A stretch of DNA of 64,000 bases from contig CM119371.1 in the NCBI GenBank assembly GCA_051294905.1, positions 19,470,001 through 19,534,000 of the forward strand, written 5' to 3'. Shown in pieces: positions 54,146-54,805 of this stretch. This DNA comes from Botryllus schlosseri (taxonomy: Eukaryota). The notes below the pieces were generated by a model that was not told the origin of the DNA, searched no databases, and saw only the letters and a list, made by a program, of their open reading frames with translations. Each line of letters starts with the position of its first letter. The first letter of the stretch is position 1. A program made the position numbers and the translations under genes.

Positions 54146-54703
54146 TCAATAATCTATAGAATGAGACATGTATAGTGTATACGCATCATTTCAGAGATTT
54201 TCCAAATTATGGACAATCCTAACTTGCATGCTTATGAATCATAGGGATGGTAGTATTCAGACATACAAGATTCAAAATGTTAGAAACCACTGATGGAGAT
54301 CCAGATCCATCAGCCACGCTCGAAACATGACCGCGTGGACTTCGTAGCCTACTCACCTCTAAACAATTGTGCCGATAGGTACGCTCGTAAGATCTGCTTT
54401 ACGCGGTTTTCTCGTCTACGAACAGGTGCTGCGTAGTAATATCTCGTAGTGTATCTTGGAACCGCTACATACTGTAATAACGACGCGAGAAGTAGTCTCA
54501 TTAGAAACCAAATTGAAAATTAACTCGGTTCCACACACGCTCAGATACTCACCCCTGCATGTCTAGCTGCCGGCCTATTCGAGGTCACTGCAATGGAAGA
54601 AGCCTTCTGACATATGACGCAATAGAGATCGCTATAATACCTCCCACTCACCTGCTACAAAGGTCGCCGCCAAAAGTAAGATAAAACTGGCAAAGAATCG
54701 CAT
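54146..54703 (-). CDS. Small secreted Arg/Tyr-rich peptide precursor; 4 exons, 69 aa; family unknown
   Basis: Exons 54703-54652, 54587-54553, 54471-54357, 54153-54146. Three GTGAGT donors, pyrimidine-rich AG acceptors, compatible phases. Product MRFFASFILLLAATFVAVTSNRPAARHAGYVAVPRYTTRYYYAAPVRRRENRVKQILRAYLSAQLFRDY*. The last exon is the least certain. Confidence 0.78.
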
Positions 54704-54805
54704 ATCGGTAGCAGATCAGAAGATATAATTCAATCTGTAGGGATGGAATTGGAGACTGACACGTGCATTGAAGTAGACTGACACTCCCGGGGAAGATCTC
54801 TGGTT

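Follow-up and report, generated by a model that had tools for sequence, protein, structure and literature searches.

Does the minus strand between positions 54146 and 54734 of this DNA, where no open reading frame stands out, hide a spliced gene for a small secreted peptide, and what kind of peptide would such a gene make? An earlier note on the 64,000-nucleotide stretch of Botryllus schlosseri DNA analysed here (the window), which is intron-rich, repeat-rich animal DNA of ∼41% GC, had proposed a four-exon gene for a cationic, Arg- and Tyr-rich precursor. The four minus-strand exons do join in frame, giving 69 codons followed by TGA across three introns of the form GTGAGT...YAG. The parts of this model, placed from the sequence and, for the helix, by AlphaFold2, are the following:

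54704 to 54734, minus strand: putative 5′ UTR of the first coding exon, with no reads
54652 to 54703, minus strand: coding exon 1, 52 nt, ATG and residues 1–17, ending in phase 1, signal-peptide-like
54588 to 54651, minus strand: intron 1, 64 nt, GTGAGT...CAG
54553 to 54587, minus strand: coding exon 2, 35 nt, residues 18–29, 60% GC
54472 to 54552, minus strand: intron 2, 81 nt, GTGAGT...CAG
54357 to 54471, minus strand: coding exon 3, 115 nt, residues 30–67, with a Tyr-rich part at 30–45 and a predicted helix at ∼43–67
54154 to 54356, minus strand: intron 3 as placed in the earlier note, 203 nt, GTGAGT...TAG, with a strong donor and an uncertain acceptor
54146 to 54153, minus strand: terminal coding exon of the 69-residue form, 8 nt, completing Asp68 and adding Tyr69 and TGA
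54219 to 54289, minus strand: alternative terminal coding exon, giving a 90-residue product with one Cys and without an acidic tail

We regard exons 1 to 3 as well supported. The word GTGAGT occurs 12 times on the minus strand per 64 kb, and three of these occurrences lie within 300 nt at the peptide locus; the four readable donors of an intelectin gene in the same window (described below) are not GTGAGT, and therefore three perfect donors exceed what this genome needs. Intron 2 also contains, ∼30 nt before its acceptor, the word CTAAT, which we take to be branch-point-like. As a separate observation, the exon-3 frame stays open when read back into the 3′ end of intron 2 (54501–54349, minus strand), which adds an ATG and nine mostly hydrophobic codons; the resulting unspliced 50-codon reading frame with a short leader is probably a by-product of the pyrimidine tract.

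How often a comparable chain would arise by chance was estimated with a chain finder, whose rules (an ATG, three introns of 50–300 nt, YAG acceptors with a pyrimidine tract, an open frame, and a hydrophobic start) were fixed after the locus was known. In the real window, the peptide locus was the only model returned with GTGAGT, GTRAGT, or GTRAG donors and a signal-like start. Order-4 Markov sequence amounting to 6,500 window-equivalents yielded 12 three-intron models with GTRAGT donors and a hydropathy of at least 2, one model with GTGAGT donors only, and none with a 10-residue hydropathy of at least 2.8, where the best 10 residues of the real leader, which carries a basic residue at position 2, reach 2.86. 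The chance rate under strict rules is 0.0018 per window or lower. When a signal-like start was required, models appeared in 0 of 150 shuffles with GTRAGT donors and in 2 of 150 with GTRAG donors; when the signal rule was dropped, the corresponding counts were 3 and 63 of 150. A looser start rule combined with GTRAG donors gave models in 43 of 652 shuffles, and weak donors gave them in 566 of 652, with a mean of 2.1 loci, so that the excess over chance vanishes because the rules have been loosened.

Two properties of the locus formed no part of the finder's rules. Intron 1 interrupts the codon of residue 18 in phase 1, where the signal region ends, and phase-1 introns are reported, in the part of PMC1626468 available, to be in excess at just this position in secreted animal proteins. 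Arg and Tyr are enriched relative to random frames (P of 0.003 and 0.006, respectively, both uncorrected), while the scarcity of Cys and of acidic residues is not significant by the same comparison. We conclude that the locus is very probably a real gene, live or recently silenced. The idea of a hidden gene for a small secreted peptide therefore stands as likely, being rare by chance and having a phase-1 intron at the end of its signal region, although RNA did not support it.

The same cannot be said of every part of the earlier model. Its exons 1 to 3 hold as a chain; its exon 4 does not hold as the single solution, since the third donor can be paired with acceptors at 54289, 54230, or 54153, and retention of intron 3, which leads to a stop at 54351–54349, fits as well. 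With the acceptor at 54289, the intron would measure 67 nt, nearer in length to introns 1 and 2 than with the other acceptors, and would contain CTGAT as a branch-like word, and the product would have 90 residues with one Cys; the acceptor at 54153 leads to the 69-residue product. Because several acceptors are possible for intron 3, the terminal Asp-Tyr is a choice of model and not a result. After the terminal exon of the 69-residue form there is a run of ten A (54144–54135) and an AATAAG at 54119. A search within 9 kb for an exon encoding an acidic helix gave nothing convincing: an acidic helix follows from none of the 11 nearby acceptors listed, and the one acidic frame found, at 5.9 kb, is rich in Cys.

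The composition claimed for the product was borne out by the spliced translation, in which residues 21–69 contain 10 Arg, 1 Lys, 7 Tyr, 1 Glu, 1 Asp, and no Cys, with YYY at 40–42 and RRR at 47–49. We assume from the −3/−1 rule that signal cleavage after Thr19 or Ser20 is likely. Removal of ∼20 residues leaves a 49-residue product of 5.9 kDa with a pI of 10.95 and a charge of +8.8, and its Tyr residues (14%) adjoin Arg. Single-sequence AlphaFold2 prediction of the exon-3 frame gave a low-confidence Tyr-rich start and a helix at 43–67, with a pLDDT of 90 for residues 50–59. The amphipathic helix that had been placed at residues 50–67 did not survive; its hydrophobic moment is 0.16, a value exceeded by 70% of shuffles. 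The moment is 0.44 for residues 45–62 and 0.58 for residues 51–61, and the best amphipathic window is equalled by 11–14% of shuffles of the mature sequence; residues 45–62 are thus predicted to be moderately amphipathic. Cleavage at RRR would cut through residues 45–62 and yield pieces of about +4 (21–46, with five Tyr) and +2 (50–69). Because this cleavage splits the 45–62 window, activity on membranes would require an intact Arg run, whereas a role as ligand or cross-linker would use the cut.

Upstream of the coding chain, a pyrimidine-rich CAG has its last base at 54735 and lies 31 nt from the ATG, exactly where the earlier note had read it. Two TCAGTC words, at 54781 and 54759, are presumably initiator-like. 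The CAG could be a cis acceptor for a non-coding exon, for which the closest strong donor upstream is at 57258, or an SL acceptor, or it could simply belong to the UTR; SL trans-splicing is described in Botryllus in the accessible portion of PMC3691228. The next feature upstream was also placed by sequence:

54811 to 56037, no strand assigned: transposon-like element with related inverted ends and a 9-nt flanking direct repeat (54810–54802 and 56046–56038)

This outer element carries telomere-like CCTAA arrays and ends ∼75 nt upstream of the CAG at 54735. Nested inside it is a 952-nt repeat (55007–55958), another copy of which lies at ∼24036–24892, and reads that skip 55007–55958, i.e., without the inner element, were found in two runs. 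A pattern scan of 54735–58000 found no NF-κB-like site. On the same strand, 1.9 kb upstream, 11 codons at 56617–56585 (minus strand) are 73% identical to the peptide leader (E of 0.22), which is likely a chance resemblance.

We searched for relatives using the exon-3 frame (40 aa) or this frame extended into intron 2 (56 aa) as the query. With the exon-3 frame, a protein search gave no relative at near length, a search of longer proteins gave two candidates and none at E up to 10, and there were no matches among 1.84 billion representatives, no Pfam families or PDB sequences at E up to 10, and no confirmation of any of 595 pattern matches in metagenome contigs. The ESM Atlas returned unnamed clusters at 0.90, with recognition below its threshold, and no usable named match. 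When the full spliced protein was compared with the 64-kb window, it matched only itself, with no close paralogue besides the 11-residue leader likeness, and Rfam had no match in 49000–60000. Titles and the starts of abstracts in the literature yielded no description of this peptide or of a tunichrome precursor gene. The blank in homology is weak evidence, because the query had 40–56 residues and the animal's own intelectin was absent from the hits listed from the same database; moreover, short defence peptides of the LCAMP type are described in the part of PMC7387483 at hand as diverging too fast for homology search. The sequence of the peptide is without a detected relative, while its kind, the short lineage-specific secreted cationic peptide gene of ascidians, is well known.

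For expression, 4 of the 24 runs listed, whose tissues and individuals are not given, were aligned to 53400–57400 at 90% likeness: a bulk RNA run (12.9 million records, ∼6 in 100 of the run), a single-cell run (22.2 million, ∼3 in 100), and two further runs that are contig sets and were covered whole. Over 54338–54739, which contains exons 1 to 3, no column had any depth in any of the four runs, whether of reads or contigs, and the RNA-seq junctions by which the earlier note had proposed to check its introns did not appear among the joints listed, 15 of 53 for these runs, none of which lies at a predicted intron. In the bulk run, this sets a rough ceiling of 0.6–2.7 TPM for the peptide gene, provided that the allele reaches 90% likeness; the aligned stretch is without a single-copy expressed control gene, and alleles less than 90% alike would escape.

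The depth that was observed in 53400–57400 falls on repeats. Partial depth of reads or contigs covered 54070–54337 (exon 4, the start of the 3′ UTR, and intron 3) and none lay on exon 3; within it, for the bin 54070–54203, the bulk run gave depths of 5.73 and 0.37 for the two mate directions, and one contig set gave 241. The simplest reading of this bin is a repeat fragment, and a diverged paralogue is possible. A run search, whose query took in the upstream transposon, listed no RNA set with the locus, and the small shares it returned (0.05–0.20) probably reflect repeat words. The zero depth argues against a constitutive morula-cell product in the samples examined. The peptide is not abundant and constitutive in the sampled runs, and it would therefore be inducible, stage-limited, or absent from those individuals. 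By analogy with mussel myticalin genes, for which presence/absence between individuals is reported in the available part of PMC5577615, such variation could be the source of the missing reads here.

What, then, would the gene make? We tentatively favour a lineage-specific, linear, cysteine-free cationic host-defence peptide of a styelid-type ascidian, made as a short secreted precursor. Starting from the exon chain, the hydrophobic leader, and the Arg- and Tyr-rich, acid-poor tail seen in the sequence, its leader would direct secretion through the ER and the signal peptide would be removed near residue 20, after which a 49-residue product of about +9 would be stored or secreted largely uncut. 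Its Arg residues would bind anionic microbial surfaces, and the helix face of residues 45–62 would disturb membranes. Some of the Tyr may become DOPA by hydroxylation and then undergo oxidation by phenoloxidase, two steps suggested for styelins and botryllin alike in the part of PMC9966394 available. The same source, as far as it was accessible, describes haemocyte peptides of the cationic helical kind in styelids. The defence peptide, one of the products proposed in the earlier note, thus survives as the leading reading on length, absence of Cys, and a predicted cationic helix, while the particular helix it named, its exon 4, and the RNA evidence do not speak for it.

The closest known parallels are the Ciona LCAMPs. 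The screen that defined them filtered on a length of 50–100 residues, no Cys, and a cationic helix, and left 22 candidates (PMC7387483, as accessible). Like these precursors (Ci-MAM-A, Ci-PAP-A, and the 22 candidates, as that source presents them), the peptide has 50–100 residues, a signal-like leader, no Cys, abundant Arg, a predicted helix, an Arg run inside its cationic part, and no detectable homology. Length and lack of Cys hold for the 69-residue form, whereas the 90-residue form has one Cys. Unlike them, it is without an anionic C-terminal helix (17 of the 22 in the part of the study at hand have one, so that it is usual and not required), it has much more Tyr, and its leader, compared by eye, fits neither of the consensus sequences given there. 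Tested LCAMPs have hydrophobic moments of 0.12–0.38 on the HeliQuest scale, and the active ones keep internal Arg runs (Table 3 of PMC7387483, seen in part); on the amphipathicity filter, the modelled 69-residue form would be borderline.

With styelins and botryllin the peptide would share a styelid-type host, a secreted cationic helical product, and Tyr available for DOPA. Botryllin is made as a prepropeptide of 158 residues, with a long propiece at its C terminus, and morula cells express it constitutively according to the available part of PMC9966394, whereas the peptide here has 69–90 residues and is without a propiece. Identity with a styelin or botryllin was rejected, there being no propiece and no sequence match found with the exon-3 frame. 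Mussel myticalins are likewise linear and cationic, with a signal peptide followed by a sequence in which Arg, Tyr, and Pro abound (PMC5577615, in the part consulted). They differ in phylum and exon layout, and the peptide has one Pro-Arg-Tyr only, without repeats or an anionic extension; myticalin identity was rejected as a likeness of composition only, a single PRY standing against the PRY repeats, Lys-Arg site, and anionic extension which that source describes.

The earlier note had suggested that YYY might be a source of tunichrome. This did not hold up, YYY being internal and followed by Ala-Ala-Pro, with the nearest basic site at 47–49. The last residue of tunichromes is a decarboxylated dehydro-DOPA or -TOPA amine, whose formation requires a free carboxyl at the C terminus, and An and Pm, the tri-Tyr types, come from phlebobranchs (PMC3039461, including its Table 1, as far as accessible). 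None of the plicatamide or tunichrome sequences given in the sources available is contained in the peptide, and its YYY is without a C-terminal processing site. Like plicatamide, tunichromes, and morulin Pm, the 69-residue form does end in a free Tyr, their dehydrodopamine position in the accessible part of PMC3039461, and by analogy this terminal Tyr may be a better candidate than YYY for dehydrodopamine chemistry; a C-terminal Tyr is obtained solely with the intron-3 acceptor at 54153. One could go further and read the gene as encoding a ribosomally made precursor to a polypeptide of the morulin or plicatamide type, whose 8-nt terminal exon places a free C-terminal Tyr that is turned into dehydrodopamine by hydroxylation and oxidative decarboxylation while the internal Tyr cluster gives DOPA and TOPA, and in which alternative intron-3 acceptors would switch the terminal Tyr on and off; we consider this highly improbable. 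The biosynthesis of ascidian dehydrodopamine peptides was called largely unknown in a 2010 review (PMC3039461, as seen in part), and if the conversion of the terminal Tyr were true, this would be a gene for a known class of ascidian natural products and a handle on the modifying enzymes.

In NPY and NPF, the C terminus is Arg-x-Arg-Tyr/Phe-amide, and an intron falls in the codon of the last Arg. Compared by eye with this pattern, the peptide resembles these families in its 40-residue Tyr-to-Tyr stretch, its C-terminal helix, and a last intron in the penultimate codon. Membership was rejected: it ends in Phe-Arg-Asp-Tyr-stop with the intron in the Asp codon, it is without an amidation signal, and it has no Pfam or PDB match. 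NPY signalling is moreover reported lost in urochordates in the part of PMC7314547 available.

Several points tell against a host-defence role and leave room for other products. Exons 1 to 3 have zero depth in four of four runs while botryllin is constitutive in morula cells; the anionic C-terminal piece present in 17 of 22 Ciona candidates is missing; shuffles match the best amphipathic window too often; an RRR cut leaves only weakly charged pieces; and the window has no close paralogue. A structural or adhesive peptide, in which DOPA formed from Tyr would act together with adjacent Arg to cross-link the cuticle of the tunic or to attach larva or colony to surfaces, with expression in a narrow stage or cell type, is unlikely. 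The 14% Tyr next to Arg agrees with it, stage-limited expression would account for the zero depth, and the holdfast cuticle of Halocynthia is built from catechol peptides (PMC13079984, in the part available). In that source, however, the holdfast peptides are ∼50 mol% catechol with Glu/Gln, Ser, and Gly, as against the basic helical tail here; ascidian adhesive proteins made recombinantly are domain proteins of 47–65 kDa (PMC12817120); and the peptide is without repeats. A lineage-specific signalling peptide, cut by a convertase at RRR or at R-x-x-R (49–52) into a helical peptide of 17–20 residues ending in Tyr and acting on a GPCR from rare cells, seems to us rather unlikely. The signal-like leader with one multibasic site agrees with it, as does the zero depth if the cells are rare, and lineage-specific Ciona peptides without a database match (CiEMa and PEP51) are documented in the accessible part of PMC10888236. 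Yet the 69-residue form has no amide-donor Gly, Pfam and PDB gave no match at E up to 10, the family tests speak against the NPY-like spacing of Leu-Arg-x-Tyr and the terminal Tyr, and the role does not require a charge of +9.

The remaining alternatives concern whether the gene is active or exists at all. It is improbable, in our judgement, that a once-functional peptide gene has fallen silent in this haplotype through insertion of the nested transposon ∼75 nt upstream of the first coding exon. The element at 54811–56037 with its flanking direct repeat, and exon depth of zero in four of four runs, are what such silencing would leave, but the frame and splice sites are intact, an acceptor at the CAG of 54735 would place the element merely within an intron or outron, and the runs most likely come from other individuals, possibly without the insertion. 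Slightly more improbable still is that there is no gene, and that splice-like words which happened to line up in repeat-rich intergenic DNA were picked from many windows. Neither RNA nor a homologue was found, the rules were set post hoc, and under loose rules a shuffled window holds about two models; against this, the strict rules gave only 12 models in the 6,500 windows, none as hydrophobic, the phase-1 position and the Arg/Tyr bias lay outside the rules, and the databases are also without this organism's intelectin.

A host-defence peptide, our preferred reading, would if expressed be an unrelated-looking addition to the fast-evolving secreted cationic peptides of ascidians, which are a source of salt-tolerant antimicrobials, and it would illustrate that such genes can escape annotation based on open reading frames and homology. 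Given the 252 predicted secreted proteins of 50–100 residues in Ciona (PMC7387483, as available), a peptide gene would be useful but unsurprising.

Elsewhere in the window, a collagen-intelectin gene with at least five coding exons lies at 19028–27242 (plus strand); its main exon is 77% identical to Styela clava intelectin-1a-like, and Styela clava gave the highest-identity named matches for the intelectin, which points to a host of styelid type other than Styela clava itself. A possible duplicated remnant of its last exon is found at 27643–27727. A near-perfect palindrome of 11.6 kb (33007–44603) has arms of 4,768 nt that are 100% identical and contains, by eye, a Bcl-2-like frame at 39326–39877. 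Two adjacent frames at 47674–48459 (plus strand) have, also by eye, the look of what we take to be a decayed hAT-type transposase. Finally, a tRNA-like stretch with A and B boxes at ∼50570–50490 (minus strand), which is an inverted repeat of 5289–5383 and falls below Rfam thresholds, is probably the head of a tRNA-derived SINE.
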